Counted from the stretch's first letter, positions 1 to 24,412 are shown. The stretch is DNA of 58,310 nucleotides from Candidatus Saccharimonadota bacterium (GCA_027340655.1 DAHWQR010000003.1:1-58310), one strand, 5' to 3'. Numbers and translations are program-made. Notes: generated from the sequence alone by a model not told the origin.

Positions 1-1
1 T

Positions 2-151: not shown

Positions 152-389
152 CTGCAAAACAATCACACATTCAGACTATTTAATGTGTTATTCCATCGAA
201 TAATTTCATTAGCTAAACTCTTATAAACCGACTGGTCTAGGGTCACCAAAAGGACATTACAGATAAGAAGTAGTTATAAATTTTTATAACGAAAAATAAC
301 TAAAATCTTTCATTTGTTAATTGATTCAATTCTGCTTAGCCAACTTTAATTCTGATACTAACAGCCTCTCAGTACTATAATCCAAGTTA

Positions 390-878: not shown

Positions 879-972
879 TATGCTCTTAAAGCTTTATTCC
901 ACCCAATAATCTTACTGACAATTTCCTTATCGTTGGCTATTAGATGGTTCACCATTCTGCTTATGCCTAATG

Positions 973-1581: not shown

Positions 1582-1795
1582 AAAACATATTATACCATTC
1601 GACTAACGTAAATACTAGACTCTTAAAAACTAGTGTATGAGTTCTATAACTAGGTGGGAGGTTTGTTGCATCTGGATTGCTCTTTGATAACTCATACCAC
1701 TGATTAATCTCCTCAAGGATATAGTTCCAATTCGATAATAGGTGGTTCACCATAGGAAAGTTTTTCAATCTTGGTAAATTCCTGTATCTATACAT
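1574..1795 (-). CDS. Small hypothetical protein, first gene of a two-gene minus-strand module
   Basis: A 73-aa ORF that overlaps the 202-aa ORF by 8 nt, giving an operon-like arrangement. No motif is recognised. Confidence 0.35.
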   Translation of the reverse strand: MYRYRNLPRLKNFPMVNHLLSNWNYILEEINQWYELSKSNPDATNLPPSYRTHTLVFKSLVFTLVEWYNMFYA

Positions 1796-1935
1796 AGTTA
1801 GTTATTGAACGCCTAAAAATAACTATCTAATCAGTCAGTTTATAGTTTGCATCGTGTTCATTTGTAATATTCGTTATAACCTAATTTAGGTAGACAGAGC
1901 CGGCAATACAACAGTGTCTATGCAATAATTATCGT

Positions 1936-3087
1936 ATGTCATGGTTAGAAGACGCAGTATTTTATCAAATATTCATTGATAGATTTGCAGGTTTTAAAAC
2001 AACCGATAATTGGGAGAAGCCTGATTATCTAGGGGGTAACATCAAAGGCATTATTAGTAAGCTCGACTACATAAATGACTTGGGCGCTAATGCAATTTTG
2101 ATTACACCATTTAACAAAGGTATTGCTTACCATGGATATCACATAACAGATTTCTATGGAGTTGATGAACATTTTGGTACAGAAGCAGATCTAAAGTACT
2201 TAATTAAAGAAGCACACGATAAAGGCATTAGAATAGTTTTTGATTTTGTACCCAATCACTGCTCCAATAAGCACCCATATTTTCTTGATGCCATAAACGA
2301 TAAGAATAGTAAATATAGGGATTGGTTTATTTTTGAATCTTGGCCTAATGATTATCAATGCTTTAGTAGATATAAAGAGCTACCAAAACTTAATCTAGGC
2401 AATAAAGAAGTTAGACAACATTTATTGGGCTCTGCGCGTAAATGGTTAGGTATTGGATTTGATGGAGTTAGAATTGACCATATTGTGGGAATTTCGAATG
2501 ATAATATCAAAGCGGTAATAAAACCCCTAAGAGAGGAATTTCCTGAAGCAGTATTTATAGGTGAAGCTTGGATAACTAGAAACGTAAAACTGCGGGAGAT
2601 GAAATTACTCCATACTCCATATAAATATTTAATATGGCTATTCCAGTGGAATAATCGTTTATATAAGAATTACGCTGGAATTTTAGATGGAATCTTAGAC
2701 TTTGAGACAGCTCAACTTTTGGAAAGATATGCAACTTCTGGCAGCGGAAAGTATAAAAGTCAAATAGTGAAAAAGATTGTTAGGCACAGAAATGTAATCA
2801 GCCACATAACCTTTTTAGATAATCATGATATGGAGAGGTTTTTATATCGTTGTGGTGACGACATTAATAAATTAAAGAAAGTGGCTACTCTTCAATTCTT
2901 GCTTCAAGCAATCCCTATGATTTACTACGGCACGGAGATTGGCATGTCCCAGACGAAGCCATTCTCGCCACTAAATAGTTATAGTGATATCCTCGCCAGA
3001 GAACCAATGTGGTGGGAGAAACCTAAACAAAACAGTAAATTATTAGACTTTTATAAAAACCTGATTAAGAAAAGGAGTTCTAAGTAG
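1936..3087 (+). CDS. GH13 alpha-amylase-family glycoside hydrolase (compact, no signal peptide)
   Basis: The four conserved GH13 regions are present: VFDFVPNH (I), GFDGVRIDH (II), FIGEAW (III) and FLDNHD (IV). The N-terminal motifs FYQIFIDRF and GGNIKGIISKLDYINDLGANAILITP are also present. Confidence 0.85.
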   Translation: MSWLEDAVFYQIFIDRFAGFKTTDNWEKPDYLGGNIKGIISKLDYINDLGANAILITPFNKGIAYHGYHITDFYGVDEHFGTEADLKYLIKEAHDKGIRIVFDFVPNHCSNKHPYFLDAINDKNSKYRDWFIFESWPNDYQCFSRYKELPKLNLGNKEVRQHLLGSARKWLGIGFDGVRIDHIVGISNDNIKAVIKPLREEFPEAVFIGEAWITRNVKLREMKLLHTPYKYLIWLFQWNNRLYKNYAGILDGILDFETAQLLERYATSGSGKYKSQIVKKIVRHRNVISHITFLDNHDMERFLYRCGDDINKLKKVATLQFLLQAIPMIYYGTEIGMSQTKPFSPLNSYSDILAREPMWWEKPKQNSKLLDFYKNLIKKRSSK

Positions 3088-6038: not shown

Positions 6039-7169
6039 TTGCAGGAGACTGTTCTACCAAAGAGTAATGAAGTAAAGTTACATGATACTAATGTTCCAAA
6101 GAAGCATAACTCGACCGTCCAAAACGATAAGAGCGCTCTTAAAGCCGCAAGTGTAATAAATAAAAGACAGCAACCAAAAGCTAAGCTAGCAACACCTTTA
6201 AGACCCCTAACTTCTGTCGATCACATTGCCAATGTCGGTCAAGTAAAAAGTGAAACCAAGCCCGCGCCTAACCCGCCCCAACTCGCTTCAAGCGCCGAGA
6301 ATATACATGACAGCCTCGATGCTGCCCCAAAAGCCATCGCTTTAATTAACTCGCTGACAACGGACCAGGAACAAATCGACGGGCCACTATTAGCCGGTAG
6401 TTTAGATTTAGACTTTCAGCTAGAGGATCTAGACATCCCAGGCCTTAGCTTTGATGAAGAAACGCTTCCTATGGAAAACTATTCTGAAGTTGATGTTTTA
6501 ACAGAAGACGTGTCCGAGATTGACGTCTCTATAGTCGAAAAGAAAGATTTAATGCAGGCCGAAACTGAATATATGGGCGAGCTACTGGTTAATTTGATCG
6601 CAAATTTTGCCGAAACTAGCCCGTTTGATGAGCAATTTGATATGATGCCTGATCAATTTGCTGATGAAATGAGCATTGATTCAGAACCGGACGACACAGT
6701 GGAGCGCGAAACAAGGTTGCAAGACATTATCGAGGAAGAACTCGGTCCTTACCTAAGCTCTATGGAACCAGAACGTATCGAGGTCGTTAAAAGAAGTGTA
6801 ATTGAGCTCGGGGCAATGTTAAGAATAGGCAATCTCAAGATCGAGAATTTACTAAGTTTTGAGAAGGGAGAAGTTGAGCAGAGGCTGGAAATGCTCTGCA
6901 TTCAGTTATTTTATGTGCTAGGTCTAAACTCTGACGCTTCTACTATCGAGAAATTTATGCGCAATATTATTGTCGCGAATCAAGGCGCTAACTTTATTGA
7001 ATCTGACGCATTGTCCATCGATCGCATCAACAGTCTCGGCACGCATGAGCATAAACTGCCGATTAACCTTCACTTGATTACTGGTCTGACTAAACTGATT
7101 AAACGACAGATGAACTCTCACCTGATTTTGGGCCGTTACGCTATCTTAGGTTTACAATCCAGTGCTTGA
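6039..7169 (+). CDS. Acidic hypothetical protein, probable 3' part of the interrupted gene (frame open from 5823)
   Basis: The ORF-track start is a TTG with no obvious SD. The same frame stays open 216 nt further upstream, reading NPKKKLDNPKTSEIPATNISEKNPKERTEAPKKNNDNDKEKPEPP... The protein is rich in D/E. Confidence 0.55.
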   Translation: MQETVLPKSNEVKLHDTNVPKKHNSTVQNDKSALKAASVINKRQQPKAKLATPLRPLTSVDHIANVGQVKSETKPAPNPPQLASSAENIHDSLDAAPKAIALINSLTTDQEQIDGPLLAGSLDLDFQLEDLDIPGLSFDEETLPMENYSEVDVLTEDVSEIDVSIVEKKDLMQAETEYMGELLVNLIANFAETSPFDEQFDMMPDQFADEMSIDSEPDDTVERETRLQDIIEEELGPYLSSMEPERIEVVKRSVIELGAMLRIGNLKIENLLSFEKGEVEQRLEMLCIQLFYVLGLNSDASTIEKFMRNIIVANQGANFIESDALSIDRINSLGTHEHKLPINLHLITGLTKLIKRQMNSHLILGRYAILGLQSSA

Positions 7170-7853: not shown

Positions 7854-8687
7854 TTAGTACTCTCCGCTAGAACGTAAGCTAATCATTATTGTGCCCGCCA
7901 AAGCTAGAGTTACCCCGGCAATAACCAAGCCCCATTGTCCTTGTCGCGGCCTGTCCCCCAGCAATGCAATGCCAATAGCAATCGGTACCAGGGTTTCGAA
8001 GGCTACCATAGTAGCATTAATTACACTTGCGTGATGTCTCTGCAGAGCTACGGTAAAGGTTAGAATGCCAACTAGACCGTAAGCGAACAGGGACCATAAC
8101 AAGGGGCTATAAAGAACCTGCCAGTAGGGGTGCGTAATTATCAGCATCCGACCGGTGATGGCTGTGCCGCCAAAGGCTAAGCCGCTAATAGCAGCTAAAA
8201 CTGCCGCCGAAGAATAGACTTTAGTTTTAATGGATATTGATGCCAGAAGCGCCAAAAGCAGCGGGAAGAACACAATAATCCACTTCGCGACTTGACCGAC
8301 GGCTTGAGCTTTCTCGGGCTGAGCCGTGAGGCTGAGCATGATTAAGCCAAAGAAGATAATTCCCATAGCGACTAAAGAGCGGGCACTTAATGCGCGGCGC
8401 AGAATAAACTTATCTATTAGTGCCGTGACTACTACGCTAAAGGCCACTATCGGCTGGACTACGAAGAGCGGCAATTCGTGCACCGCGACTAAAGTCAGCG
8501 GCCAGGCTATGACGTCGAGCAGAAGACCAAGGAGATATGGCCAGTCACGCACTAACCGGGTTAAAATGCTCAGTCTTAGAGCGCTTACCCGAGCATGTTT
8601 GTCGGCGCTGTTTTTCTCCAGCTCGGCAGCAATCCCGTTAGATAGAGCCACTCCGGCTGCGGCTAGTAAGGCAAGTCTGAATATCAT
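7854..8687 (-). CDS. Polytopic membrane protein, DMT/EamA-like transporter
   Basis: A 277-aa protein with about 9 hydrophobic helices and a two-halves architecture. No sharper motif is seen. Confidence 0.5.
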   Translation of the reverse strand: MIFRLALLAAAGVALSNGIAAELEKNSADKHARVSALRLSILTRLVRDWPYLLGLLLDVIAWPLTLVAVHELPLFVVQPIVAFSVVVTALIDKFILRRALSARSLVAMGIIFFGLIMLSLTAQPEKAQAVGQVAKWIIVFFPLLLALLASISIKTKVYSSAAVLAAISGLAFGGTAITGRMLIITHPYWQVLYSPLLWSLFAYGLVGILTFTVALQRHHASVINATMVAFETLVPIAIGIALLGDRPRQGQWGLVIAGVTLALAGTIMISLRSSGEY

Positions 8688-8810
8688 AGCTGTAACTTTA
8701 GCAGAGTAGTGACGCGAGTTTTAGGTTTTGGAGTTTGGTGTAAGCTAAATCATAGGAGATTATCAGGAAACTGAGTAATATTATGAATAAATAAGGAAGG
8801 AAGATTAAAT

Positions 8811-9065
8811 ATGTATTACAACTACGGTCCAGGCCCGATGGGCGCTCACAATTGGGGTATAGGAGCTTTAATGGGTGTGTTTTTCTTAATTTTCATTGTG
8901 ATTGTCGCTCTTATAGTAATCTGGTTGCTAAATCATCACGATGTTAGCTCCCGAGGAACGTCTATCGAAGGTAGCGCTGATCCGTTAAACATCGTTAAAC
9001 AGCGTTACGCAAAAGGCGAAATCAAAAAAGAAGAGTACCAGCAGCTGCTTAAAGACCTAAAGTAA
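8811..9065 (+). CDS. SHOCT-domain small membrane protein
   Basis: An N-terminal TM helix is followed by the C-terminal LNIVKQRYAKGEIKKEEYQQLLKDLK, which fits the SHOCT signature (RyAkGEI..eEy...k..L). A strong SD (aaggaagg) precedes the ATG. Confidence 0.6.
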   Translation: MYYNYGPGPMGAHNWGIGALMGVFFLIFIVIVALIVIWLLNHHDVSSRGTSIEGSADPLNIVKQRYAKGEIKKEEYQQLLKDLK

Positions 9066-9315
9066 CCTCCATTAATCAGGTGCGCTAGTTACAAGTTTTC
9101 TAGGCGTTTGTTTACTTATCCTAGAAAGTTCAGAGATATTTAATGCCCCTCGTCTAGTCGGGCCAGCTATTTATTTGCTAAAGCTTATTTCGGATTCTTC
9201 TAAAGATAAATTCCAACTGTCTATAGTTCTGGTGGTGGCCAAAAAAAGTCAACCCCTAGAACCAGATGACTTAACAATCGTAGCGAATTGGTTGCATCGC
9301 CCGAGCTGTCATAAA

Positions 9316-9321
9316 TATAAT
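9316..9321 (+). promoter_or_regulatory. Candidate -10 hexamer (TATAAT) for the T4SS-like operon
   Basis: Sequence cataaaTATAATccc lies 30 nt upstream of the ATG at 9351. A GGAGGGG SD sits at 9336-9342. Confidence 0.35.
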
Positions 9322-9350
9322 CCCTTCGAATTGACGGAGGGGATAAGAAA

Positions 9351-9713
9351 ATGTCAAAGAGAGTTAAGCAGGCCGCGGTTCTTAGCTGTTGGCTGATTGC
9401 GCCATTGCTTGCGTTAATAATAGCTCCGCCGGGGAATGCTCTGGCGGCTAATGCTCAGATGGGCCAGGTGGATAATTTTATCCGTAGCGTTATTACGGCG
9501 GTAACCGGCATTGCCGGATTAGTCGCCACCGGCTTCTTTGTTTTAGGCGGATTCAAGTACATAACCAGTTCGGGCAATCCGCATAACTTAGAACATGCTA
9601 AGCGAACGATTGTTTTCTCAGCCCTCGGTCTGGCTATCGCAATCGCGGCATTTGTACTTAGTGGAATCGTCACCAGTCTAGCGAGTTCGGCTTTCGGTAG
9701 CATCAGACTATGA
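9351..9713 (+). CDS. VirB2/TrbC-like T4SS pilin-type small membrane protein
   Basis: The signal peptide ends ...PPGNALA/ANAQ. Two hydrophobic helices then flank the loop GGFKYITSSGNPHNLEHAKRT. The size and topology match VirB2/TrbC-type subunits of Gram-positive and CPR T4SS loci. Confidence 0.6.
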   Translation: MSKRVKQAAVLSCWLIAPLLALIIAPPGNALAANAQMGQVDNFIRSVITAVTGIAGLVATGFFVLGGFKYITSSGNPHNLEHAKRTIVFSALGLAIAIAAFVLSGIVTSLASSAFGSIRL

Positions 9714-11020
9714 TTTACTTCTTTGCTTCAATTCACGGCTTCGTCGTTCCAATACTCGCTAGCCTAAGCGGACTAGCCACGCTTTTATGTACTTTTTTTC
9801 TGGTTTGGGGCGGACTGGCGTACATCACAAGTTCCGGCGATCCCGGTAAACTAGCCCATGCCAAACACATGCTCTCAAGGGCTATGCTTGGGCTGGTCAT
9901 TGTTTTGGCGGCCTCGGCGATCAGCCTAATCCTGACCCATACATTTGTTAGCTCGTCGGTCTCCACATCGCAAAAACTACCAACCCTAGCAGCGATCAAG
10001 CCGGTATCTGCAAGTGGCGGACTGGTGGAGGTGTTAATTAAAGCAATTGCCGGTATGATGGCGGTAATTGTCGAGACCGTTGGCAAACCATTCATTTTAG
10101 CCCTGTCGTACTTTACTAAGTCCACACCTTTGCTAACTCATAGTGCTAGCGTTATGCACCTTTGGCTCATCTGCACCGGTCTAGCCGACGGATTGCTAGT
10201 ATTAGTAATTGCGCTGCTTGGATTCCATGTAATGAGTGGCGAATACATCGGGCTCAAAGATATCAGCCTCTCCTCCCTAGTGCCTCAACTACTGCTGGTA
10301 TTTGTGCTAATTAACACTTCGATTTATCTACTGGACGGGGCAATTGAGCTTTCTAATACCATGATTTTGGCGATACGCGCCGGAGCAGGAAACATCACTC
10401 CCTGGCAATCTCTGCTAAAGGTTGTTTCCGGAGCCTCCGGATATAGTCTAGCCGCATTAATAGTATTTGTTATTTTTCTAGTCTTCAGCGTAATTTTAAT
10501 CATCTACTATATCGGACGCATTGTGGCCCTTTATTTAGGCGCCGTGTTGTCTCCCTTGCTTATTTTGCTCTGGCTACTGCCTAGTTTTAGGGATTTCGTG
10601 GAAAACGCCCTAAAGGCCTATCTCTCCACAATTTTTGTTTTGTTTATACATGTCATAATTCTGACCCTGGCCGGATCATTGTTCTTAGGCGTAGTTAGCA
10701 GCGGCAACAGCTCGCCTGACCCAATAATGTCGCTACTGCTTGGTCTGGCTACCCTGATTGCACTGATTAAAACCCAGGGAGTGCTAATGCAGCTTAACTA
10801 CGCCAGCCTGGGGGCGCGTTCGGCTCGCCGCCTGGGGAGTAATTTTATTAACGGCGTTAGTTACCTGGCTTTAACGGCTAGTTATGCTTACAGCAGTAGC
10901 GTCGCCCCGGCCTTAAGTGCCGCCGGAGGGGGCGTACGCAAAGTTTTACCAGAAGCAAAGTCCAAAATTAATCGTTCCAGTAACAGCACCCCCAAGAATA
11001 ACAAGGGGCCAAAAGCATGA
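9710..11020 (+). CDS. VirB6/TrbL-like polytopic T4SS channel protein with an N-terminal VirB2-like module
   Basis: A 436-aa protein with about 8 TM helices. Its first ~85 aa repeat the pilin motif of the previous gene (GGLAYITSSGDPGKLAHAKHM). It overlaps the upstream gene by an ATGA. Confidence 0.6.
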   Translation: MIYFFASIHGFVVPILASLSGLATLLCTFFLVWGGLAYITSSGDPGKLAHAKHMLSRAMLGLVIVLAASAISLILTHTFVSSSVSTSQKLPTLAAIKPVSASGGLVEVLIKAIAGMMAVIVETVGKPFILALSYFTKSTPLLTHSASVMHLWLICTGLADGLLVLVIALLGFHVMSGEYIGLKDISLSSLVPQLLLVFVLINTSIYLLDGAIELSNTMILAIRAGAGNITPWQSLLKVVSGASGYSLAALIVFVIFLVFSVILIIYYIGRIVALYLGAVLSPLLILLWLLPSFRDFVENALKAYLSTIFVLFIHVIILTLAGSLFLGVVSSGNSSPDPIMSLLLGLATLIALIKTQGVLMQLNYASLGARSARRLGSNFINGVSYLALTASYAYSSSVAPALSAAGGGVRKVLPEAKSKINRSSNSTPKNNKGPKA

Positions 11021-11514
11021 AAACTTCAATCGTACCTGCCCAAATCACTTCAATCGAGGATACCATTACCGCTAAATTATCCCTGACCCAGATTGTCCTT
11101 TTAGTGCTGCCGGTCTTTTTTGCGAGCATTGTTTTTGCCGGTTTACCGCCCTTGATGCACGTTAAGGTATACAAGCTGGTTATTACGTTTTTGGTTTCGG
11201 CACCAATCGCCGTGCTTGCTGTTCGATTCCGAGGCCAACTTTTATTGCATTGGCTAGGGGTGTTAGTGAGTTATCATATCCGCCCCCGTCGCTACGTAGC
11301 AACACTTGATCCGCCCTGCGAAAATGATCATAACGATTCCGGCTTAATAAGCATTGAAACCAAGGTTGCTCCAACTCTAATCACATCTGAATCGCTAGCC
11401 GATTTAACCCCTTCCGACTACCTGATGCTAGAGAATTTTCTGAGCAATAAAAAAATTACTTACTTTACGAATAATAAGGGGCAACTCAATGCACGTATTA
11501 AAGCGCAGCAATAG
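11017..11514 (+). CDS. PrgI/VirB3-like small T4SS membrane protein
   Basis: The N-terminus VPAQITSIEDTITAKLSLTQIVLLVLPVFFA resembles the PrgI-family start (vP.di...edki..gLt.rQl). Two TM helices follow. It overlaps the upstream gene by an ATGA. Confidence 0.5.
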   Translation: MKTSIVPAQITSIEDTITAKLSLTQIVLLVLPVFFASIVFAGLPPLMHVKVYKLVITFLVSAPIAVLAVRFRGQLLLHWLGVLVSYHIRPRRYVATLDPPCENDHNDSGLISIETKVAPTLITSESLADLTPSDYLMLENFLSNKKITYFTNNKGQLNARIKAQQ

Positions 11515-12136
11515 AATAGAACCGTCCCGACAAAACAATGGTTCGGCTAAGATCCAGATTAGTATAAAGGGGGTTCAAGAGGAGATCTTAGCGCTTTCGG
11601 ATAGGCGCTACTGCAGCATCATTGAAACCTCGTCGGTTAACTTCGAGCTTAAAAGCGAGGATGAGCAGGATGCATTAATCGAAACCTACCAAAGCTTTTT
11701 AAATGGGCTGGGCTTCCAGATCCAAATTATCATTCGGGTACGCGAAATAGACCTCGACCATTACTTAGACGATCTTGATGAGCGCTCGAAGAAAGAAGAG
11801 CATGCCGTTTACCGCAGTCAAATCGAGAGCTATGCCTCGTTTGTGCGCAGCCTAGTCAGTGTAAACCGGATACTGAGCCGAAACTTTTATGTCGTTGTAC
11901 CGCTGGAGTTGGATTCTCGGCATGACTTTGAATTTGCCCGTGAGCAGCTGTCTTTGAAAACCGAAATTGTCGAAAAGGGCTTAATGCGCTTAGGCATGAA
12001 TACCCGCGAGCTTAGAGGCATCGAAATACTTAATCTGTTTTATGCTTTTTATAATCCGAAACAGGCTAAGAATCAGCCTTTAACGGATAGCGTAATGCGA
12101 TTGATGCATACGGTACTGGTAGGAGATGGAGCATGA
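11489..12136 (+). CDS. VirB4 N-terminal-domain-like protein (separate ORF)
   Basis: YCSIIETSSVNFELKSEDEQDALIETYQSFLNGLGFQIQIIIR resembles the N-terminal domain of Gram-positive VirB4/PrgJ-type ATPases. Together with the next ORF it totals 215+573 = 788 aa, about full VirB4 length. It overlaps the next ORF by an ATGA. Confidence 0.5.
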   Translation: MHVLKRSNRIEPSRQNNGSAKIQISIKGVQEEILALSDRRYCSIIETSSVNFELKSEDEQDALIETYQSFLNGLGFQIQIIIRVREIDLDHYLDDLDERSKKEEHAVYRSQIESYASFVRSLVSVNRILSRNFYVVVPLELDSRHDFEFAREQLSLKTEIVEKGLMRLGMNTRELRGIEILNLFYAFYNPKQAKNQPLTDSVMRLMHTVLVGDGA

Positions 12137-13854
12137 AGCTAAAACAGCTACTCAATAGCAAGCAGTCGGATCATGTAGTCTGTTTTGGCGAGCAGGACCA
12201 GCTGAGTTTAATTAGCTACTCCGGCTTAGAAGAGTTTCCGGACTATCTCGAATTGGACGGACAATTCTTGCGCGTACTTTATATCTCCGGATATCCCTAC
12301 GTAGCTCATTCCGGCTGGTTGGATAGCTTAATTAACTTTAACCACGACGTAGATATCTCATTCCAAATTGAGGATATTGACGCTACCAGCGCTTTACCCA
12401 GACTGCAGCGCAAAATTACCGAACTTGAATCAACTAAGCGCACGATGATTAAAGCCGGCCGGATTGTCGGACCGGACATTACCGATCCGTTAGAGTCGGC
12501 CACCCAATTGCGTGACAAAATTCAGCGCGGTCAGGAAAAGTTATTTCAACTGGCGATCTATATTTGCTTAATAGCAGAATCGGAAAACGATCTCAACAAG
12601 TTAACCAAACTTCTAGAAACTGCCCTCGCAGCCAGAATGTTTTTTGTTAAAACGGCCCGGTACCAGCAACTTGACGGACTGCAGTCAGTATTGCCCAGAG
12701 CCGAAGACAGGCTTAAACAGAAACGTAACCTGGATAGTTCGTCGGCAGCCTTAAGCTTTCCTTTTATGTCTTCTGAGCTGGTACAGGAAAACGGCATTCT
12801 CTACGGAGTTAATAAATCTAACAGCTCGCTCGTGATGCTCGACCGCTTTGGTTTAAATAATGCCAATAGTATTACCTTTGCTCAGTCCGGAAGTGGCAAA
12901 AGTTATGCCAGCAAAGTTGAAATACTAAGACAATTAATGCTTGGAACGGACGTTATCGTAATTGATCCGGAACGCGAATATGCCAATCTGGCAAGTTCAG
13001 TTGGAGGCACCCATATTGAACTTTCTATCGGCTCGAGCCAGAAGATAAACCCTTTTGGATTGAATAGCAAAGATAAGACAACTACCTCTGCCTCATTAGC
13101 TGAACAGGTGCAAGGACTAACGGAGATTATTTCGCTGATGGTCGACGGCTTAAATGCCAGGGAAATGGCAGTCGTAGATAAAGCCATCCTAGCAGCTTAT
13201 AAGAAAGTATCATTAAAGCGCGAGGTGACGCTGGAGGACTTCTACGAGCAACTTATTAAGGCTCAGGAGCATAGATTGGCGGAACGATTGGAAAAGTTTG
13301 TTAACGGCTCCCTAGCCTCGGTTTTTAACCACCCGACAAACATTGATTTAGACAACCGCCTAGTGGTATTTGACATTAAAGATTTGCCGGACAATCTGCG
13401 CCAGATGATGATGCTAATAATTTCCAATTTTGTCTGGGGGAAAGTAAAGCATCAACCTAAAAAACGGCTACTGGTAATTGATGAGGGCTGGTTGCTGCTG
13501 GAGCATGAGCAAAGCGCCCGCTTTATAGCTGGACTTTTTAGGAGAGCCCGGAAGTACTGGCTGGGAGTGGCGGTCATTTCTCAGCAGGCATCGGACTTTT
13601 TAGCCAACGAATATGGACGAGCCATTGCCAGCCAAAGTTCACTAAGAATTTTAATGCGCCAAGACAGCACCACAATCAACAATGTCTCTCAGGAGTTTAA
13701 GCTAAGCGAGTTTGAACAGAGCTTTTTGCTGACTTGTGACCGCGGCGACGCATTAATTATTGCCGATTTGAATCACGTCGCATTAAGCGTTGTGGCATCT
13801 GCTAGCGAACACCCGCTAATTACTACCGATCCGAATGAGGTTTTTGCAAAATGA
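12133..13854 (+). CDS. virB4: VirB4/TrbE/PrgJ-type T4SS ATPase (C-terminal ATPase part)
   Basis: Walker A is FAQSGSGKSY and Walker B is RLLVIDEGWLLL. The conserved FRRARKYWLGVAVISQQ is present. The N-terminal DGQFLRVLYISGYPYVAHSGWLDSL is typical of VirB4. Confidence 0.85.
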   Translation: MKLKQLLNSKQSDHVVCFGEQDQLSLISYSGLEEFPDYLELDGQFLRVLYISGYPYVAHSGWLDSLINFNHDVDISFQIEDIDATSALPRLQRKITELESTKRTMIKAGRIVGPDITDPLESATQLRDKIQRGQEKLFQLAIYICLIAESENDLNKLTKLLETALAARMFFVKTARYQQLDGLQSVLPRAEDRLKQKRNLDSSSAALSFPFMSSELVQENGILYGVNKSNSSLVMLDRFGLNNANSITFAQSGSGKSYASKVEILRQLMLGTDVIVIDPEREYANLASSVGGTHIELSIGSSQKINPFGLNSKDKTTTSASLAEQVQGLTEIISLMVDGLNAREMAVVDKAILAAYKKVSLKREVTLEDFYEQLIKAQEHRLAERLEKFVNGSLASVFNHPTNIDLDNRLVVFDIKDLPDNLRQMMMLIISNFVWGKVKHQPKKRLLVIDEGWLLLEHEQSARFIAGLFRRARKYWLGVAVISQQASDFLANEYGRAIASQSSLRILMRQDSTTINNVSQEFKLSEFEQSFLLTCDRGDALIIADLNHVALSVVASASEHPLITTDPNEVFAK

Positions 13855-14327
13855 AGAAAATGGTCGCTCTGTCAGTGGCGGTAGTTATCTTTATGATGAG
13901 CATGCCAATTATTTTTCTGCTTACAGCGACGAATGTCGGCGCCTTGGCCTCCGCAGCGATTAGTTTATTCGACTCACCGGCTAACGCTTCAGACGCCTAT
14001 GAGTATGGCGAGTGCACCTACTGGGTAGCTCTGCGGCGTATCCAAATCGGTGAGCCGATACCAAACACCTGGGGCAATGCGATTACTTGGGCAACGCGCG
14101 CCGCGGCAGACGGCTATCAGGTCGACCACACACCCAGCTATGGAGCTATTATGCAGGATCCGCTGGCTCCCGGTGGACTAGGGCACGTAGCCTTTGTGGA
14201 AAGTGTTAATCTCTTAACCGGCTCCTGGACGATATCTGAAATGAACCGTGTCGGTTGGGATGAAGTTGATACGCGAACTATGCCTGCACAGGCAGCAAAC
14301 AAGTATAACTTTATCCATAACCAGTAA
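13851..14327 (+). CDS. CHAP-domain peptidoglycan hydrolase (T4SS-associated, VirB1 functional analogue)
   Basis: An N-terminal TM/signal segment is followed by the catalytic Cys context YGECTYWVALRR and the His context GLGHVAFVESV. It overlaps virB4 by an ATGA. Confidence 0.75.
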   Translation: MKKMVALSVAVVIFMMSMPIIFLLTATNVGALASAAISLFDSPANASDAYEYGECTYWVALRRIQIGEPIPNTWGNAITWATRAAADGYQVDHTPSYGAIMQDPLAPGGLGHVAFVESVNLLTGSWTISEMNRVGWDEVDTRTMPAQAANKYNFIHNQ

Positions 14328-14372
14328 GAAGTCTTTAAATTTATGCCTGTCACAATATATACTTAAGAGCGA

Positions 14373-15809
14373 ATGGTGGGCAATAAAACAAGAAAACCAG
14401 AAGTTCCAAGCGAACGAACACTAACCAAAATCTTAGCTACTATCGGTCCGGCGACTAGTAGCTATGAGCTGGTTTTAGAGCTGATTAAAAGCGGCGTTAA
14501 CGGTTTCCGGCTTAATTTCTCGCACGGTACTCACAAAGAGAAGGGCGAGCAAATTAAATGGGTGCGTAAAGCCGCGAGCGAGCTGGGCGTACGCGTGTCT
14601 ATCGTTCAAGACCTTCAAGGCCCGAAGATGCGTTTAGGAGATTTCGACGGCGCGCTAGAAGTAAAGCGCGGTCAAACTCTAGTGCTTGAACACGACGCCG
14701 ACTTTAGCCAGAGCGGACATTTGCCGACTCAATATGATCTAAGCACTAAGGTAAAACGCGGCGAAAGGGTGATGCTGTTTGACGGCCGTGTTATTAGCCA
14801 GGTTAGCGCTATAAAGAACGGCGAGGTTTATGTAGAAGTCCAAAACGACGGGATACTTATTAAGCGCAAGGGCATCAATCTACCGGATACAGATTTTGCC
14901 GGTGACGTTATTACGCCAAAAGACAGGGCCGACCTTATATGGGGCGCCAGCCAAGACATTGACTATGTAGCGCTCAGTTTTGTTCAGTCGGACGAAGACA
15001 TTAAACAGCTCAGACGTATTCTCTCGACGATCAACTTCAACGCTCGGATTATTGCCAAGATCGAAACCAAAGCCGCAATCGACAATTTGGAGGACATAAT
15101 TAAGGAATCTGATCTGATCATGATTGCCCGCGGAGATTTGGCGGTGGAGACGCCAGCCGAAAGCATTCCTTTAGTGCAACGCAACATTATTGCTCTAGGG
15201 CGGCGATATGCCAAACCGACAATCGTCGCTACACAGATGTTGATTAGTATGACTCAGGAAATGGAGCCTTCCCGAGCCGAAGTGTCCGATGTGGCCACGG
15301 CCGTTCTTATCGGCGCTGACTGTCTCATGCTTAGCGAAGAAACCGCGGCCGGTCGTTACCCGGTAGAGGCGGCCAAGACGATGCAGCGAATTATTAGCTA
15401 CACCGAAAGTCACGCTCCTGCGCTAGTTAGTCTCGATGACGCTAACCTAAACCAATCAATTCAAGACGCGATTACCGAGGCAATCATTAAACTAACTCAA
15501 ATCGTGAAAGCCAAGGCGATAGTCGCAGAGACTAAAACCGGGTCTACAGCGTTAAGTATTGCCGCCAGACGTCCAAGCACGCCCTTGATTGCCGTAACTA
15601 ATTTGGAACGTACGGCTCAGCAACTAGCGATTGTCTTTGGCTTGAGTAGTTTCGTAAGACCGGCAACCACTAAAGCTGCAGTTAAACTGACGGATTATCT
15701 AAGAGATACTCACGTTTTTAGCAAAGGCGACGTAATAGTTACGGTATCCGGTCAACAGCCTGGTGTGGTCGGTACTACGGATACAATAAAAGTAAGGATG
15801 CTAGAGTAA
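14373..15809 (+). CDS. pyk: Pyruvate kinase
   Basis: Motifs KILATIGPAT, NGFRLNFSHGTH, DLQGPKMRLG, IIAKIE, IMIARGDLAVE, ATQMLISM and SEETAAGRYP. Confidence 0.95.
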   Translation: MVGNKTRKPEVPSERTLTKILATIGPATSSYELVLELIKSGVNGFRLNFSHGTHKEKGEQIKWVRKAASELGVRVSIVQDLQGPKMRLGDFDGALEVKRGQTLVLEHDADFSQSGHLPTQYDLSTKVKRGERVMLFDGRVISQVSAIKNGEVYVEVQNDGILIKRKGINLPDTDFAGDVITPKDRADLIWGASQDIDYVALSFVQSDEDIKQLRRILSTINFNARIIAKIETKAAIDNLEDIIKESDLIMIARGDLAVETPAESIPLVQRNIIALGRRYAKPTIVATQMLISMTQEMEPSRAEVSDVATAVLIGADCLMLSEETAAGRYPVEAAKTMQRIISYTESHAPALVSLDDANLNQSIQDAITEAIIKLTQIVKAKAIVAETKTGSTALSIAARRPSTPLIAVTNLERTAQQLAIVFGLSSFVRPATTKAAVKLTDYLRDTHVFSKGDVIVTVSGQQPGVVGTTDTIKVRMLE

Positions 15810-17093
15810 ATGTTTGTTAAAAAAACAGTAGAAGACGTTTCGGTTGACGGCAAAACGGTACTCTTGCGGGCCGATTTCAACGTCCCGATTAAAGACGGTA
15901 AAGTCGCCGATGCCTATAGGATTAAGCAGGCTCTGCCGACGATTAAATATTTGCTAACGCACAACGCTAAACCGATTATCATCTCGCACTTAGGCCGTCC
16001 TGACGGTCACGTTAATCCCGAGTTTTCGCTGCATCCGGTAGCTCAAGTTCTGGAGCGGATGCTTAATGTTCAAGTGGAATTTGCCAAGGATTGTATCGGT
16101 AAACCAGTGGAGCGGTCTTTAGCTAAGCTAGAGCACGGTGGAGTTGTGCTTTGTGAAAACCTGCGCTTTCATGCTGAAGAGGAGGAGAACTCCGAGAGCT
16201 TTGCTAAGGCATTAGCTAAGCCGGCTGAACTTTTTGTTCAAGATGGTTTTGGCGTAGTTCACCGCAAGCACGCCTCAACTGATGCGATCACTCGCTTCCT
16301 GCCCTCAGTATCCGGATTTTTACTTAAACGTGAGGTAGATACAATTACCGAAGTGATGGCTAACCCGAAGCGCCCGTTAATGGCAATTATTGGTGGCGCG
16401 AAGATTACTGACAAACTTGACTTAATAAAAAGGTTCATTGAGATCTCAGACATTGTGGCCATTGGCGGCGCAATGGGCAACACCTTTTTAAGCGCCCAAG
16501 GCGTTTTTGTCGGCGATAGTCTAATTGACTCGAATGACCTACCTCTAGCCAGGGACATCATTCGTATGGCCGATGAAGAGGCCAAAAAGCGGCGTTTTGT
16601 GTTCGTGCTACCACGCGATGCGGTTGTCTCGGAGAAGATCGAGCCAGATGCAACAACCAGGATTGTTGACTTCAGCACGCACGTTGTCGCCGAAATTGAG
16701 AATTACCCGAGAAGGGTGCCGCATGGAGCGATTAGCGTAGCCAAACACGAGCGGATTCTCGACATCGGTCCATTCAGCGGTTCATTTATTGCCGGTGCGA
16801 TACAGCAGGTAAGTACTGTGGTTTGGAACGGTACGATGGGAGTAACAGAAGTATCTTCCCTGATCGGTGCCAGCGGGCCGTTCGCTCACGGAACCGAACT
16901 AATTGTAGACGCTTTACTGGGTCAATTTGGTTTTCGTCCCTTTAGTTTGGTTGGTGGCGGGGACACGGTCGGTTATGTTGAAAGCCGTGGTTTAATTGAG
17001 CAGTTTAATCATGTTTCTACCGGTGGCGGAGCCAGTCTTGAGCTGATGGCCGGACGTAAATTGCCAGGAGTCGAAGCTCTGGAGGATAAATAG
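15810..17093 (+). CDS. pgk: Phosphoglycerate kinase
   Basis: Motifs VLLRADFNVP, ISHLGRP, ENLRFH, AIIGGAKITDKL and STGGGASLELM. The ATG directly abuts the pyk stop codon. Confidence 0.95.
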   Translation: MFVKKTVEDVSVDGKTVLLRADFNVPIKDGKVADAYRIKQALPTIKYLLTHNAKPIIISHLGRPDGHVNPEFSLHPVAQVLERMLNVQVEFAKDCIGKPVERSLAKLEHGGVVLCENLRFHAEEEENSESFAKALAKPAELFVQDGFGVVHRKHASTDAITRFLPSVSGFLLKREVDTITEVMANPKRPLMAIIGGAKITDKLDLIKRFIEISDIVAIGGAMGNTFLSAQGVFVGDSLIDSNDLPLARDIIRMADEEAKKRRFVFVLPRDAVVSEKIEPDATTRIVDFSTHVVAEIENYPRRVPHGAISVAKHERILDIGPFSGSFIAGAIQQVSTVVWNGTMGVTEVSSLIGASGPFAHGTELIVDALLGQFGFRPFSLVGGGDTVGYVESRGLIEQFNHVSTGGGASLELMAGRKLPGVEALEDK

Positions 17094-17095
17094 GG

Positions 17096-17101
17096 TACAA
17101 T
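17096..17101 (+). promoter_or_regulatory. Candidate -10 hexamer (TACAAT) 12 nt upstream of the tpiA ATG
   Basis: Sequence tagggTACAATaaggtaaatactATG. There is no SD in the short leader. Confidence 0.25.
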
Positions 17102-17113
17102 AAGGTAAATACT

Positions 17114-17899
17114 ATGAGCAGGGTCAAATTAGTGGTGGCTAATTGGAAAATGTACTTGAGCGTACATGAGTCAAGTCTGCTTGTAAACCGCTTGAATAAG
17201 ACCGTAAAAGTCCATCGTGGCGTTGAAGTAGTCCTATCTCCCAGCTATCTCAGTTTACAGCCCATAAGCCAGGAAATTGACCGTCGAAAGTTCCGCCTGG
17301 CGGCTCAGGACGGTTACTTTATAGACGAAGGGGCCTACACCGGAGCGGTTTCTTTAAGTCAGATGCGCGATCTCGTGCATTATGCAATTATTGGTCATTC
17401 CGAACGCCGGCGTTACTTTCATGAGAGCTTAGATGAAGTACGGGACAAGGTTGCCGCTGCGGTACGTAACGGCATCGTGCCAATCCTTTGTGTTGGCGAG
17501 ACCAAAGAAGAACGCACCCAAAGAGAGACAAAGCAAGTACTCCACGACCAAGTGGTTACAGCGCTTGCGAATCTTACCAGCCAAGATGTAGAGAATATTG
17601 TGATTGCCTACGAACCGGTCTGGGCGATCGGCGCCGACCAACCGGCACCTCCAGATGCCATCGCTGAGGCGATTAGTTGGATCCGCTTCCAGGTACGAGA
17701 ACTTTACGGACAAACTACTGAAGAGGCGGTGCGTCTTTTGTACGGCGGCAGCGATGAGCCGGAATACGTCGCGGCAATCATGGAAGTTAGCGGAGTTGAC
17801 GGCTTGCTAGTTGGCCGCGCCAGCCTAAATTATGAACGCTTCAGTGATATCGTTACAGGTGTTCATCTGGCGGCGTTAAGCGAATCTAAGGCAGAGTAA
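17114..17899 (+). CDS. tpiA: Triosephosphate isomerase
   Basis: Motifs VVANWKMY, IIGHSERR, ILCVGE, IAYEPVWAIG, LYGGS and LLVGRASL. Confidence 0.95.
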   Translation: MSRVKLVVANWKMYLSVHESSLLVNRLNKTVKVHRGVEVVLSPSYLSLQPISQEIDRRKFRLAAQDGYFIDEGAYTGAVSLSQMRDLVHYAIIGHSERRRYFHESLDEVRDKVAAAVRNGIVPILCVGETKEERTQRETKQVLHDQVVTALANLTSQDVENIVIAYEPVWAIGADQPAPPDAIAEAISWIRFQVRELYGQTTEEAVRLLYGGSDEPEYVAAIMEVSGVDGLLVGRASLNYERFSDIVTGVHLAALSESKAE

Positions 17900-17924
17900 G
17901 ACTAAGGTCAGAGGGAAATTTTCG

Positions 17925-18623
17925 GTGGCAGAAACTAAAAAGAGTAAAACAATCGATGTAGTCTCAGGCAGTTCCGAGCCTGAAACTAATCGCCCGATAA
18001 TTGTTAGCCGCAAGCCAATTATGTCCGATCCGGAGTTCGTTGCCCAAGCCGGCGAGGACGAGTCCATGCCCAAAGAGGAAGAAGATAATGTCAATCGAAA
18101 CAACTTTATTAAGTTTGATTCTTCTAAAGATAAAGCTGAAGCTAAACCAAAGGCCGAGCTAAAAATAGAACCATTAACTGAGAATAATTTAGACTCACCT
18201 AAAAACGAACCCCAAGCTGAGCCGGCAAGTGAGCCGGAAGCAAAGACTGAAGCCAACGAACCCCAAGCTGAGCCGGCAAGTGAGCCGGAGCCAAAGCCTG
18301 AGGTAACTGAGCCCAAGACAGATAGCGAAAGTCAGTCAGCGCCACCAGAGGCCCAATCTGAGGCTGCCAAAATGCGCCGCCAGTTACAGCAAGAAGAAGA
18401 AAGTCGCGAGCGCATCGAAAAAATTAACCAGCTGGTCGAAAGTGAACGTTACTTCCTGCCAATCAACATGAAGGAAAAGCGCTACAACCAACGAGTTATC
18501 TTAATTGGGTTGCTAATTTGCATTTTACTGGCTGTAGTTTGGCTGGATGTGGCGTTAGATGCCGGAATAATTAATAACAGTTTGCACCTGCCGCATACGC
18601 ACTTCTTTGTTCTTAAGTCCTAA
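17925..18623 (+). CDS. Acidic repeat protein with a C-terminal TM anchor (hypothetical)
   Basis: It has a GTG start, a Pro/Glu-rich tandem repeat (NEPQAEPASEPE twice), a coiled-coil segment and then the TM helix VILIGLLICILLAVVWLDVAL. It is co-directional with its neighbours. Confidence 0.5.
   Translation: MAETKKSKTIDVVSGSSEPETNRPIIVSRKPIMSDPEFVAQAGEDESMPKEEEDNVNRNNFIKFDSSKDKAEAKPKAELKIEPLTENNLDSPKNEPQAEPASEPEAKTEANEPQAEPASEPEPKPEVTEPKTDSESQSAPPEAQSEAAKMRRQLQQEEESRERIEKINQLVESERYFLPINMKEKRYNQRVILIGLLICILLAVVWLDVALDAGIINNSLHLPHTHFFVLKS
18204..18289 (+). repeat. Tandem direct repeat with an exact 35-nt core and 51-nt period
   Basis: aacgaaccccaagctgagccggcaagtgagccgga occurs at 18204-18238 and again at 18255-18289. 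Each 51-nt period (17 aa) begins with the 12-aa unit NEPQAEPASEPE; the remaining 5 residues differ between the two copies (AKTEA versus PKPEV). Confidence 0.9.
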
Positions 18624-18641
18624 ACACCTTACAATTAAGAT

Positions 18642-20804
18642 ATGAATCAAGACTTGACTGAGCCATTTGCTGAATTACTGCGCGGATTAAACGACGAGCA
18701 AAAAAGAGCCGTTTTAAGCACCGAAGGGCCGCTCCTTATTCAGGCCGGTGCCGGTAGCGGCAAAACCAAAACTTTAACTCACCGCATTGCTTATCTGCTG
18801 GCTAGCGCTAAAGCCACGCCACCGGAAATTTTGGCGGTAACATTTACTAATAAGGCGGCGCAAGAAATGCGCAACCGGGTGGCAGCCTTGATCGGTGCGG
18901 ACGCCTCCAACCGTTCATTTATGCCATTTATGGGCACCTTTCACTCAATCTGCGTGCGCATCCTAAGGGTTGATGCAGACCGCATTAATTTGCCTAAATC
19001 ATTCGTTATTTTCGATGAGGGTGATCGCTTGGCGGCTATTAGAAGGGTCAGCCGGGAACTCTCTTTGGATGAGAAAGCCTTCCCGCCCAAAGCGCTTTCC
19101 GGTCTAATCTCATCTGCTAAAAACGAGCTTATTGCTCCGGAAGAGTATTCAGCGCTAGCTAGTTACCCAACGGCTGCGGCAGCGGCCAAAGTCTACCCGC
19201 TTTACGAGCGGGAACTAAAAACAGCCGGTGGTCTGGACTTTGACGACCTAATTGTCCAGACGGTACGTTTATTAGAAAGCCAGCCGGAAGTGAGAGCCCG
19301 GTGGCAGAACCAATTTCGTTACGTCCTGGTCGATGAGTACCAGGACACCAACGCCGCTCAATACCGTCTAACTAAACTGTTAACTAACGATAAACACAAT
19401 TTGGCGGTTATCGGCGACGACTGGCAGACAGTCTACGGGTTTAGGGGTGCTGACTTCCGGAATATCTTAAACTTCGAACGCGATTACCCGGAATGTACGG
19501 TTATTAAGCTGGAAGAAAACTACCGTTCTACTAGCAATATCTTAAATGCCGGCCAGGCGATCATAACCAAGATCTCCGAGCGCAGCGATAAAAAGCTTTG
19601 GACCGCGGCCGGGGATGGTTTGCCGGTACAAGTGCTTCATGTAAGGGATGAACGCGCTGAAGCCGAGGCAATCTGCCTAAGGATTGCGACTGCGGTTTCT
19701 GCCGGAAGGCGTAATTACCGGGATTATGCCGTTTTGTACCGCACAAACGCTCAAAGCCGGGCCATTGAGGAGGGTTTCATTCGTTTTGGTTTGCCATACA
19801 AAGTGGTTGGCGGTGTGCGCTTTTATGATCGAAAAGAGATTAAGGACATCATTGCTTACCTTCGTTTAATCTTTCAGCCTGATGACAACATCAGCTTTGA
19901 GCGGATTGTAAATGTGCCGTCCAGGGGTATCGGGGCGATTAGCTTAAAGCGGTTTTTGACATGGCGGACGTCAACCGCCAAGCCCTTAGTTGAAGCTCTG
20001 GGGCAAAGCGCGGACTGTCCTAAACTAAGTCCTAAGGCGGTGGCCGGGCTCAGAGATCTCGGGGATATTCTGCTTAGTTTTCAAAAGCAAGCTCAGCAAG
20101 CCAGCCCTTACGAGCTAATCGAAGCCCTCACCCGTCGATTGAACTATTTAGAGTCCTTAGATGATGGTACGCCCCAAGGGGAAGCCCGGCAGGAGAACGT
20201 CAAAGAATTACTCAGCGTTGCCCGGCAATACCAAGATTTGCAACTGGCGGATTTCCTCGAAGAAGTCAGTCTAATAAGTGACATCGACAGCGTCGATTTA
20301 AATAGCGACGCCGTTACTTTAATGACCTTGCATTCTGCAAAGGGACTGGAGTTTAACGTAGTGTTTATGGCCGGAATGGAAGAAAGCCTTTTCCCTCATT
20401 CCAGATCAATTTACGATCAAAAGGGAATGGAAGAAGAGCGACGCCTGGCTTACGTAGGCATCACCCGGGCCCGCCAAGAACTCTATCTAATTTCTGTTGG
20501 CTCACGCATGCTATTCGGTAGCGTACAACATAACCCGCCAAGTCGTTTTTTAAATGAAATTGATGCGGTGGTTTCTTCCGATTGGTCGACCCCTCCGGCT
20601 AATGAAACGCTACTTAATCAACAAGCTGCAATTGCTAATGAGCCGCGTTACGTAATTGAGCTAAATGAAGGAGACAACGTCAGGCACCAGCTTTTTGGTG
20701 TCGGCACGGTTCTTGAAATTGACGGCGACGTGGCTACCATTTTCTTTAAAGGTAAGGGGACGCGCAAGTTAGATGTCGGTTTTGCCCCTTTAGAAAAGCT
20801 TTAG
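18642..20804 (+). CDS. pcrA: ATP-dependent DNA helicase, UvrD/PcrA family
   Basis: Motifs GAGSGKTKTLTHRIAYLL (Walker A), VLVDEYQDTN, YRSTSNIL, TLHSAKGLEFNVVF and YVGITRA. Confidence 0.9.
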   Translation: MNQDLTEPFAELLRGLNDEQKRAVLSTEGPLLIQAGAGSGKTKTLTHRIAYLLASAKATPPEILAVTFTNKAAQEMRNRVAALIGADASNRSFMPFMGTFHSICVRILRVDADRINLPKSFVIFDEGDRLAAIRRVSRELSLDEKAFPPKALSGLISSAKNELIAPEEYSALASYPTAAAAAKVYPLYERELKTAGGLDFDDLIVQTVRLLESQPEVRARWQNQFRYVLVDEYQDTNAAQYRLTKLLTNDKHNLAVIGDDWQTVYGFRGADFRNILNFERDYPECTVIKLEENYRSTSNILNAGQAIITKISERSDKKLWTAAGDGLPVQVLHVRDERAEAEAICLRIATAVSAGRRNYRDYAVLYRTNAQSRAIEEGFIRFGLPYKVVGGVRFYDRKEIKDIIAYLRLIFQPDDNISFERIVNVPSRGIGAISLKRFLTWRTSTAKPLVEALGQSADCPKLSPKAVAGLRDLGDILLSFQKQAQQASPYELIEALTRRLNYLESLDDGTPQGEARQENVKELLSVARQYQDLQLADFLEEVSLISDIDSVDLNSDAVTLMTLHSAKGLEFNVVFMAGMEESLFPHSRSIYDQKGMEEERRLAYVGITRARQELYLISVGSRMLFGSVQHNPPSRFLNEIDAVVSSDWSTPPANETLLNQQAAIANEPRYVIELNEGDNVRHQLFGVGTVLEIDGDVATIFFKGKGTRKLDVGFAPLEKL

Positions 20805-24335: not shown

Positions 24336-24412
24336 GGGGCTATAGCTCAGCTGGCTAGAGCGCAGCATTCACATTGCTGAGGCCCATGGTTCGAGTCCAT
24401 GTAGCCCCACCA
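24336..24412 (+). tRNA. tRNA-Val (anticodon CAC), CCA encoded
   Basis: Folded by hand. Acceptor GGGGCTA/TAGCCCC, D-stem GCTC/GAGC, anticodon stem CAGCA/TGCTG with loop TT-CAC-AT, T-stem CATGG/CCATG with loop TTCGAGT, discriminator A, then CCA. Confidence 0.95.

Follow-up and report, generated by a model that had tools for sequence, protein, structure and literature searches.

The 58,310-nucleotide (nt) stretch of Candidatus Saccharimonadota DNA analysed here (GCA_027340655.1 DAHWQR010000003.1:1-58310; referred to as the window, with positions counted from its first letter) carries six tightly packed genes resembling those of a type IV secretion system (T4SS). The question raised by this locus is whether the genes are the leftover of a conjugative element or a fixed part of the chromosome and, if fixed, which role they may play. 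We put the probability at about 0.85 that the cluster is the lineage-typical chromosomal T4SS of Saccharibacteria, a vertically inherited and non-mobile core set that derives from monoderm systems of the mating-pair formation (MPF) class FATA and has lost its relaxase. The T4SS of the window is a further example of a system that has already been described rather than a new one.

A compact and conserved T4SS cluster

Open reading frame (ORF) calling and translation place the six genes, all on the + strand, at 9351-14327 (protein lengths in amino acids, aa):

9316-9342, +, possible -10 box TATAAT (9316-9321) and ribosome-binding site GGAGGGG (9336-9342), read from the sequence
9351-9713, +, VirB2-like T4SS pilin precursor, 120 aa (Pfam T4SS_pilin 6e-12; NCBIfam NF045849)
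9710-11020, +, pilin::VirB6 fusion (ORF2), 436 aa (T4SS_pilin 1.6e-7; TrbL/VirB6 1.6e-5)
11017-11514, +, PrgI/VirB3-like membrane protein (ORF3), 165 aa (Pfam PrgI 1.7e-5)
11489-12136, +, TrsD-like stand-alone homologue of the VirB4 N-domain (ORF4), 215 aa (NCBIfam TrsD/TraD 2.1e-9)
12133-13854, +, VirB4 ATPase (ORF5), 573 aa (NF045971 4.3e-112)
13851-14327, +, CHAP-domain peptidoglycan hydrolase (ORF6), 158 aa (Pfam CHAP 1.5e-16)

An initial annotation of the window had described six consecutive + strand ORFs with these domains, four ATGA overlaps plus one of 26 nt between them, and a direct run into pyk-pgk-tpiA. The ORF calls together with the Pfam and NCBIfam matches confirm the first point, and the junction sequences the second, with start and stop codons overlapping as ATGA at 9710, 11017, 12133 and 13851 and the PrgI and TrsD genes sharing the 26 nt of 11489-11514; pyk, pgk and tpiA are found downstream at 14373, 15810 and 17114. 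All six family assignments hold in hidden Markov model (HMM) searches, the two borderline ones at family level. The start at 9316 given in that annotation is the TATAAT hexamer, and the first ATG of the pilin gene lies at 9351, behind GGAGGGG. A promoter and terminator consensus scan of 8600-18700 produced sites no more commonly than in shuffled sequence; therefore, the promoter ahead of the pilin gene is a suggestion only, and the operon boundaries of the cluster are not established.

The VirB4 protein is 100% identical to that of a Candidatus Saccharibacteria metagenome-assembled genome (MAG), and another 305 species-representative genomes encode relatives. From these 306 VirB4 relatives we kept 80 loci for comparison, the titles of which nearly all name Saccharibacteria or Patescibacteria MAGs; leaving aside the identical MAG, VirB4 identity in the other 79 is 66-79%. 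By sequence relationship, the source organism is a bacterium of the Saccharibacteria, whose ultra-small cells live on those of other bacteria, within the candidate phyla radiation (CPR). All 80 related loci contain the cluster; the window and 53 of these loci show the full order pilin, pilin::VirB6, PrgI, TrsD, VirB4, CHAP, and most of the incomplete loci are cut by contig ends. Such a recurrence of the six-gene order is far beyond chance, and gene order is thereby shown to be conserved across related CPR genomes. The junctions recur too: a 4-nt overlap joins VirB6 to PrgI in 55/74 loci, TrsD to VirB4 in 36/79 and VirB4 to CHAP in 64/68, and PrgI overlaps TrsD by 23-29 nt in 35/78. The ATGA overlap between pilin and VirB6 is peculiar to the species of the window, 2-10-nt spacers being found in others. 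In the nearest relatives (loci L002-L006 and L048) pyk, pgk, tpiA and uvrD are syntenic and have diverged about as far as the T4SS genes, with identities in L003 of 75% for VirB4, 67% for pyk, 73% for pgk, 79% for tpiA and 72% for uvrD. The GC content of the cluster (0.45-0.48) resembles that of its neighbourhood.

The cluster is not a mobile element

The hallmarks of an integrated conjugative element (ICE) or conjugative plasmid are a relaxase with an origin of transfer (oriT), a type IV coupling protein (T4CP), an integrase, insertion at an att site or tRNA gene, foreign composition and patchy distribution; none of these was found in the window. The searches returned no relaxase-like ORF in the 58-kb window, with MOB HMMs run on only part of the ORFs, and no Replic_Relax homologue in the window or in 83 Saccharibacteria loci. 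No T4CP match was obtained in the window by tblastn with 64 Saccharibacteria T4CP-like proteins and a Streptomyces T4CP, no integrase adjoins the cluster, a repeat search gave no element-bounding, att-like or oriT-like repeats, and no plasmid nucleotide similarity to the cluster was found. The earlier observation that no relaxase, coupling protein, integrase or oriT-like repeat is adjacent can thus be extended to the entire 58 kb.

All remaining ORFs of at least 140 aa in the window, with one exception, have housekeeping or envelope functions; among them are uvrD, ksgA, metG, the ATP synthase operon, alaS, an ftsA-like gene, mltG, obg, uvrA and uvrC. The sole mobility-like ORF (56625-57818, -, 397 aa) gives a weak match to the rve integrase core (E 0.009), lies 42 kb off behind core genes and is possibly a transposase of an insertion sequence. 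A tmRNA gene (23058-23445, +; Rfam 92 bits) and a tRNA-Val(CAC) gene (24336-24412, +) are located 9-10 kb downstream of the cluster with core genes between, and the ORFs around them include no gene related to mobility or integration; the cluster itself has neither kind of gene next to it.

Synteny, co-divergence and composition lead us to reject an integrated conjugative element, against which the missing mobility genes, repeats and plasmid matches likewise speak. Together with the conserved order and overlaps, the same observations support the original proposal of a chromosomally fixed, non-conjugative locus. A decayed ICE, whose relaxase, T4CP and integrase have degenerated or lie outside the window, is very improbable as well. 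Its conjugative ancestry, illustrated by a Streptomyces plasmid on which the same module is accompanied by a T4CP and a Replic_Relax relaxase-like gene, and the weak rve-like ORF would speak for such a remnant. However, a remnant is hard to reconcile with six intact genes whose overlaps are conserved in dozens of species, with the VirB4 identity range seen in 79 other Saccharibacteria species representatives whose housekeeping flanks co-diverge, with unexceptional composition, with the lack of bounding repeats or an adjoining tRNA or tmRNA gene, with the count of zero Replic_Relax homologues, or with the distance to the rve-like ORF.

The free pilin and its fusion to VirB6

The pilin scores 45.9 bits against Pfam T4SS_pilin (PF18895; cutoff 26.6) and 43.5 bits (cutoff 40) against NF045849, the Mbov_0395 pilin-like conjugal transfer protein of the Mycoplasma ICE. 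A hydrophobicity scan places a signal peptide at its N terminus, with the hydrophobic core at 8-26 and AxA at 30-32; two hydrophobic helices (47-65 and 87-105) follow, linked by the conserved loop YITSSGNP..L..AK. In the form Y-I-T-S-S-G-(N/D)-P...L..AK, this motif is common to 60 free pilins and 50 fusion proteins.

The second protein of the cluster combines an N-terminal pilin-like helical hairpin, a low-confidence linker and a polytopic VirB6/TrbL-like helical bundle, with about nine transmembrane (TM) segments in the hydrophobicity scan. Its T4SS_pilin match covers residues 15-72, and residues 7-76 align with the mature part of the free pilin (residues 39-108) at 41% identity (E 2e-14); this hairpin carries no signal peptide. 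The TrbL/VirB6 match at residues 234-353 reaches 25.2 bits, slightly below the cutoff of 25.9. Among 50 orthologues T4SS_pilin is matched in all, TrbL in 37 and TrbL_4 in five, and TrbL_3 appears among the precomputed domain annotations of the family. An AlphaFold2 model (mean predicted local distance difference test 82.7, predicted template-modelling score 0.71) consists of a confident hairpin formed by helices 2-40 and 45-79, a floppy linker and seven long helices. Foldseek detected no significant match to this model in the PDB, the highest-probability weak matches being chains of the R388 T4SS stalk complex, 8rtd_L (probability 0.57) and 8rt9_F (0.35), from the TrwJ/VirB5-TrwI/VirB6 entry; family profiles of the VirB6 fusion and of PrgI gave no meaningful match to PDB sequences. 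The fusion is conserved in at least 604 homologous protein clusters that combine PF18895 with PF19590 or PF04610. The Patescibacteria T4SS literature cited below makes no mention of it, VirB3-VirB4 being the only fusion discussed there.

A split VirB4 ATPase and an exchangeable wall hydrolase

The PrgI/VirB3-like protein scores 25.7 bits against a PrgI cutoff of 27, and PrgI is matched in 47/47 orthologues (best 1.5e-8); two TM helices (26-44 and 51-69) are followed by a C-terminal extension of about 70 aa. The TrsD-like protein, predicted to be soluble with zero TM segments, matches NCBIfam NF041427 (TrsD/TraD) under the curated cutoff, and aligns to positions 13-175 of the CD1110-type VirB4 model (1.2e-11) and to positions 99-283 of the Mbov_0397 VirB4 model; Pfam TraC_F_IV (3.5e-5) and a precomputed TraC-like annotation (PF26593) are further matches. 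VirB4 itself lacks the canonical N-domain and covers positions 202-732 of NF045971, the VirB4-like CD1110 family, with 375.8 bits (cutoff 325), in addition to Pfam P-loop_TraG (1e-20) and AAA_10 (1e-14). Its P-loop (AQSGSGKS) and Walker B motif (LLVIDE at 446) are intact, and it has zero TM segments. As ORF4 and ORF5 jointly cover the whole of a canonical VirB4, we regard the ATPase as encoded by a split gene. The split is kept in relatives, trsD being a separate ORF immediately 5' of virB4 in 73 loci.

The last protein shows the catalytic Cys (GECTYWV) and His (GHVAFVE) of a CHAP hydrolase in its translation, behind an N-terminal signal or anchor helix (5-23), and is the predicted occupant of the VirB1 role. 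In about 10 relatives a Peptidase_M23 gene takes the CHAP slot after virB4 (e.g., L060:11665-12291(+), 3.5e-30), so the wall-hydrolase slot accepts interchangeable enzymes. The window encodes a further CHAP hydrolase at 42429-43358 (+; CHAP 1.1e-20, LysM 1.1e-20), which carries two LysM domains and is unlinked to the T4SS cluster.

A T4CP-like ATPase is usual in relatives and missing here

That no coupling protein is encoded at the cluster had been noted initially, and this is correct for the locus of the window and fails as a general rule. A membrane-anchored P-loop ATPase of about 868 aa that resembles T4CPs is present in 64 related loci and stands immediately after the hydrolase gene in 60 of them (e.g., L045:12261-14867(+) and L082:8001-10604(+)); therefore, the notion of a minimal channel without a T4CP cannot be generalised. 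The ATPase matches TrwB_AAD_bind and TraG-D_C above the Pfam cutoffs, SXT_TraD at 4.9e-12, and CedD and CD1115 VirD4-like models, is annotated at source as a 'TraM recognition domain-containing protein' and belongs to a family of at least 1425 protein clusters. It is 28-34% identical (E 6e-40) to the T4CP of the Streptomyces conjugative-type cluster. We base the T4CP-like assignment on these Pfam and NCBIfam matches and on the Streptomyces homology, not on the family profile against the PDB, which found TrwB only, at E 0.004 and over the Walker A region.

In the window and its sub-clade (L001-L006, L048) pyk begins 45 nt after the CHAP gene, in the place of the T4CP-like gene. The order in TM7 oral taxon 349 (L082) is T4SS, T4CP-like gene, several genes unmatched in the window, pyk and tpiA, and the sub-clade of the window resembles this arrangement without the T4CP-like gene or the island behind it. 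In Candidatus Southlakia epibionticum ML1, two T4CP-like genes lie away from the T4SS, of which SEML1_0142 is essential and SEML1_0293 is not; both are candidate orthologues of the operon-linked ATPase.

The genes behind the T4CP-like gene are variable (L082:10652-15118; L077:15070-15552(-); L046:15318-15833(-)) and comprise CTD10, DUF2326, PLD-like nuclease, Polbeta and Mrr_cat families, defence- or nuclease-like by Pfam name. The PLD-like nuclease gene recurs after the T4CP-like gene in other loci too.

Relation to known systems

A conserved Saccharibacteria region with VirB4, VirB6, VirB2 and an array of small secreted proteins was described by McLean 2020 (PMC7427843) and interpreted as serving effector delivery. 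Wang 2023 (PMC10633639) found by transposon sequencing (Tn-seq) that the T4SS genes SEML1_0006-0019 of Ca. S. epibionticum, pilins included, are essential for epibiotic growth, whereas comEC is dispensable; no recognisable coupling protein or relaxase was present in this ML1 cluster. In the phylum survey of Quinonero-Coronel 2025 (PMC12102498), the VirB4 proteins form a Patescibacteria clade sister to MPF-FATA, genes for VirB4, TrsD, PrgI/VirB3, VirB6 and VirB2-like proteins are widespread and relaxases are rare, the former effector 'secreted array' is reread as VirB2-like pilins, and the system is considered to have been co-opted for a non-conjugative role, perhaps import. A 2025 review (PMC12857230) repeats this view and treats the pilus as a possible uptake conduit, and tubular structures at the parasite-host interface together with feeding on host RNA are reported for a cultivated member of the phylum (bioRxiv 10.64898/2026.06.21.733656). 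The window presents the features of the Patescibacteria-clade T4SS set out in PMC12102498 and PMC10633639, that is, a CD1110-type VirB4, trsD beside virB4, PrgI/VirB3 together with VirB6, a VirB2-like pilin, and a Patescibacteria chromosome without a relaxase at the locus. As the interpretation of the initial annotation matches the published view, the finding is not new.

The closest described relatives are the chromosomal T4SSs of ML1 and of Ca. Nanosynbacter lyticus TM7x, which belong to the same phylum and class, likewise lack a relaxase and share the components VirB2-like pilin, VirB6, PrgI/VirB3, TrsD and VirB4, with a wall-hydrolase gene directly behind virB4. ML1 differs in scale, with 14 genes in 19 kb compared to six genes in 5 kb, and has a six-pilin array where the window has one free pilin and the VirB6-fused hairpin. 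The NTF2/VirB8-like gene and the large accessory proteins of ML1, whose VirB6 measures 1088 aa, are missing from the window; furthermore, the hydrolase is a lysozyme in ML1 and a CHAP enzyme in the window, and the ML1 cluster sits at the recF-proximal start of the genome rather than beside pyk-pgk-tpiA. The seven-gene cluster found in most of the other Saccharibacteria in the sample (e.g., TM7 oral taxon 349, CP072328.1, L082; GW2011_GWC2_44_17, CP011211.1, L029) agrees with the window in its first six genes, their order, the fusion and the 4-nt overlaps, with VirB4 66-70% identical. Unlike the window, which continues into pyk, it continues into the T4CP-like ATPase, and its VirB6 (about 490 versus 436 aa) and CHAP protein (about 184 versus 158 aa) are longer.

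Beyond the phylum, the cluster resembles the conjugative T4SSs of MPF-FATA, such as Clostridioides CTn2 (CD1110), pGO1 (TrsD/TrsE) and the Mycoplasma ICE (Mbov_0395/0397), and its VirB4 scores above the CD1110-family cutoff. The closest VirB4 proteins in the plasmid database are CD1110-type proteins of Bacillota and Actinomycetota with 31-38% identity, encoded in clusters of the same order. In Pontibacillus sp. ALD_SL1 (L084, NZ_CP062975.1, 351.8-361.4 kb; VirB4 38% identical), two pilins, VirB6-like, VirB3-like and TrsD-like proteins, VirB4 and a hydrolase are encoded; a T4CP and a relaxase are both missing within 9 kb, and the neighbours are chemotaxis and flagellar genes. Plasmid p1 of Streptomyces sp. 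BHT-5-2 (L085, NZ_CP081497.1; VirB4 35% identical) carries a pilin, a VirB6-like region, a PrgI::TrsD fusion, VirB4, a T4CP, Replic_Relax and a hydrolase, whereas the window lacks T4CP and relaxase, keeps PrgI and TrsD unfused and does not represent a mobile replicon. The upstream pilin-like genes of the Pontibacillus and Streptomyces clusters match T4SS_pilin at 2e-12 and 8e-20. Among monoderm T4SSs, pilin-like genes are therefore not confined to Patescibacteria, and VirB2-like pilins may be commoner in monoderm clusters than reviews state. Comparison of these sequences suggests a monoderm conjugative system as the probable source of the whole module, the relaxase being lost afterwards.

VirB4-powered machines without a coupling protein at the locus are also known as Bordetella Ptl, Brucella VirB and Helicobacter ComB; Ptl and VirB exemplify protein-secreting T4SSs without a T4CP (PMC12102498; PMC12857230), and ComB, a DNA-uptake system, offers a precedent for inward transport (PMC12857230). 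In contrast to the window, these are diderm systems with VirB7/9/10 outer-membrane cores, and the functional analogy is a lead only, with homology compared no further than the shared VirB2/3/4/6 families.

A possible mechanism and role at the host interface

In order to rationalise how six parts might work together, we drew on the roles of VirB6, VirB3, the VirB4 N-domain and VirB4 in solved T4SSs as summarised in PMC12857230. The pilin, with its signal peptide and two TM helices, would be translocated by Sec and, after cleavage, stored in the membrane. VirB6 would act as the membrane platform, and its hairpin, a covalently attached pilin copy, would probably seed or dock the polymerising free pilin, a function we propose because no VirB5 is present. 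PrgI/VirB3 and TrsD could tether a VirB4 hexamer to this platform, and ATP hydrolysis by VirB4, the motifs of which are intact, would drive pilin extraction, pilus growth and substrate passage. The CHAP hydrolase may open the wall of the cell itself and possibly that of the host as well, and all five gene overlaps, four of them ATGA and one of 26 nt, would, given their conservation, couple translation of the six parts.

By analogy with ML1, where Tn-seq uncovered the requirement, the most likely role would be that of a pilus or tube formed where epibiont and host meet and needed for host-dependent growth. Host contact, uptake and effector delivery, the roles envisaged initially, are the same ones discussed in the literature. 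As to the direction of transport, we tentatively favour the acquisition of host-derived macromolecules over effector export, at somewhat less than even odds. Effector export, in which proteins or toxins would be delivered to the interior or surface of the host cell with no dedicated coupling protein and would condition it for parasitism, is rather unlikely in our judgement. It would accord with the missing T4CP and relaxase and with the existence of protein-secreting T4SSs that lack a T4CP (PMC12102498; PMC12857230); Wang 2023 suggests that the system 'may instead export proteins' (PMC10633639), and PMC12592800 and PMC7427843 read it as effector delivery. However, the window shows no candidate effector gene linked to the cluster, the 'secreted array' is now read as VirB2-like pilins (PMC12102498), and the operon of most relatives retains the T4CP-like ATPase. 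An organelle for adhesion or contact only, in which a pilin polymer assembled by VirB4 and VirB6 attaches to or senses the host and nothing passes through, we consider quite unlikely. Strong conservation of both the free pilin and the VirB6 hairpin would suit it, as would the parts list (pilin, VirB6, VirB3, VirB4, hydrolase), which is a pilus-biogenesis set with no linked substrate-recruiting ATPase. Yet the T4CP-like gene in the operon of most relatives suggests a substrate, and Saccharibacteria already attach and move by means of two type IV pili (PMC12206443), which makes a second essential adhesin possible and less parsimonious.

Several points weigh against a lineage-typical chromosomal T4SS that works at the host interface. 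To our knowledge, no pilus has been biochemically demonstrated for any Patescibacteria T4SS. The VirB6 assignment is founded on sub-threshold or low-scoring Pfam matches, with a non-significant fold search and family profiles that have no solved homologue. Since nothing resembling VirB8 was recognised at the locus or in the rest of the window, which also lacks the T4CP-like gene of relatives, the machine may be incomplete without unlinked genes. Essentiality, finally, is known only from Ca. S. epibionticum, with its much larger locus of 14 genes in 19 kb, six pilins and a VirB6 of 1088 aa (PMC10633639).

Only a few machines are known to be indispensable for epibiotic life in the Patescibacteria, a huge and mostly uncultured bacterial radiation, and the T4SS is one of them. 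The window adds a very compact example with six genes, from which we conclude that a six-gene core is conserved in Saccharibacteria and that the T4CP-like ATPase, usually the seventh gene, can be unlinked or lost. The compact core and the permanent pilin-VirB6 fusion narrow the requirements of a minimal working machine. It is conceivable, and in our view improbable, that the T4SS of the sub-clade runs without any coupling ATPase, the T4CP-like gene and the island having been deleted, and that the VirB6-fused hairpin nucleates the pilus in place of VirB5. If true, pilin, pilin::VirB6, VirB3, a split VirB4 and one hydrolase would make up the most reduced functional T4SS known.

Other features of the window

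The first 3 kb of the window (1-3000) have a GC content of 0.35, compared to about 0.48 elsewhere, and may be recently acquired DNA. A 162-aa ORF at 390-878 in this stretch has an N terminus resembling that of a type IV pilin or pseudopilin (GFTVAEILIIVAVLVLL) and no Pfam match; a 202-aa ORF without an assigned family and an alpha-amylase-family gene (1936-3087) are also found there. About 2 kb upstream of the T4SS cluster lies a 376-aa, highly acidic ORF (6039-7169, +) with no Pfam match and no homologue in the related loci at the thresholds used. Another acidic protein of 232 aa (17925-18623, +), conserved and with a C-terminal TM helix and no Pfam match, is encoded after tpiA, a position kept in the nearest relatives, and its gene contains a 51-nt tandem duplication at 18204-18305 that encodes NEPQAEPASEPE.

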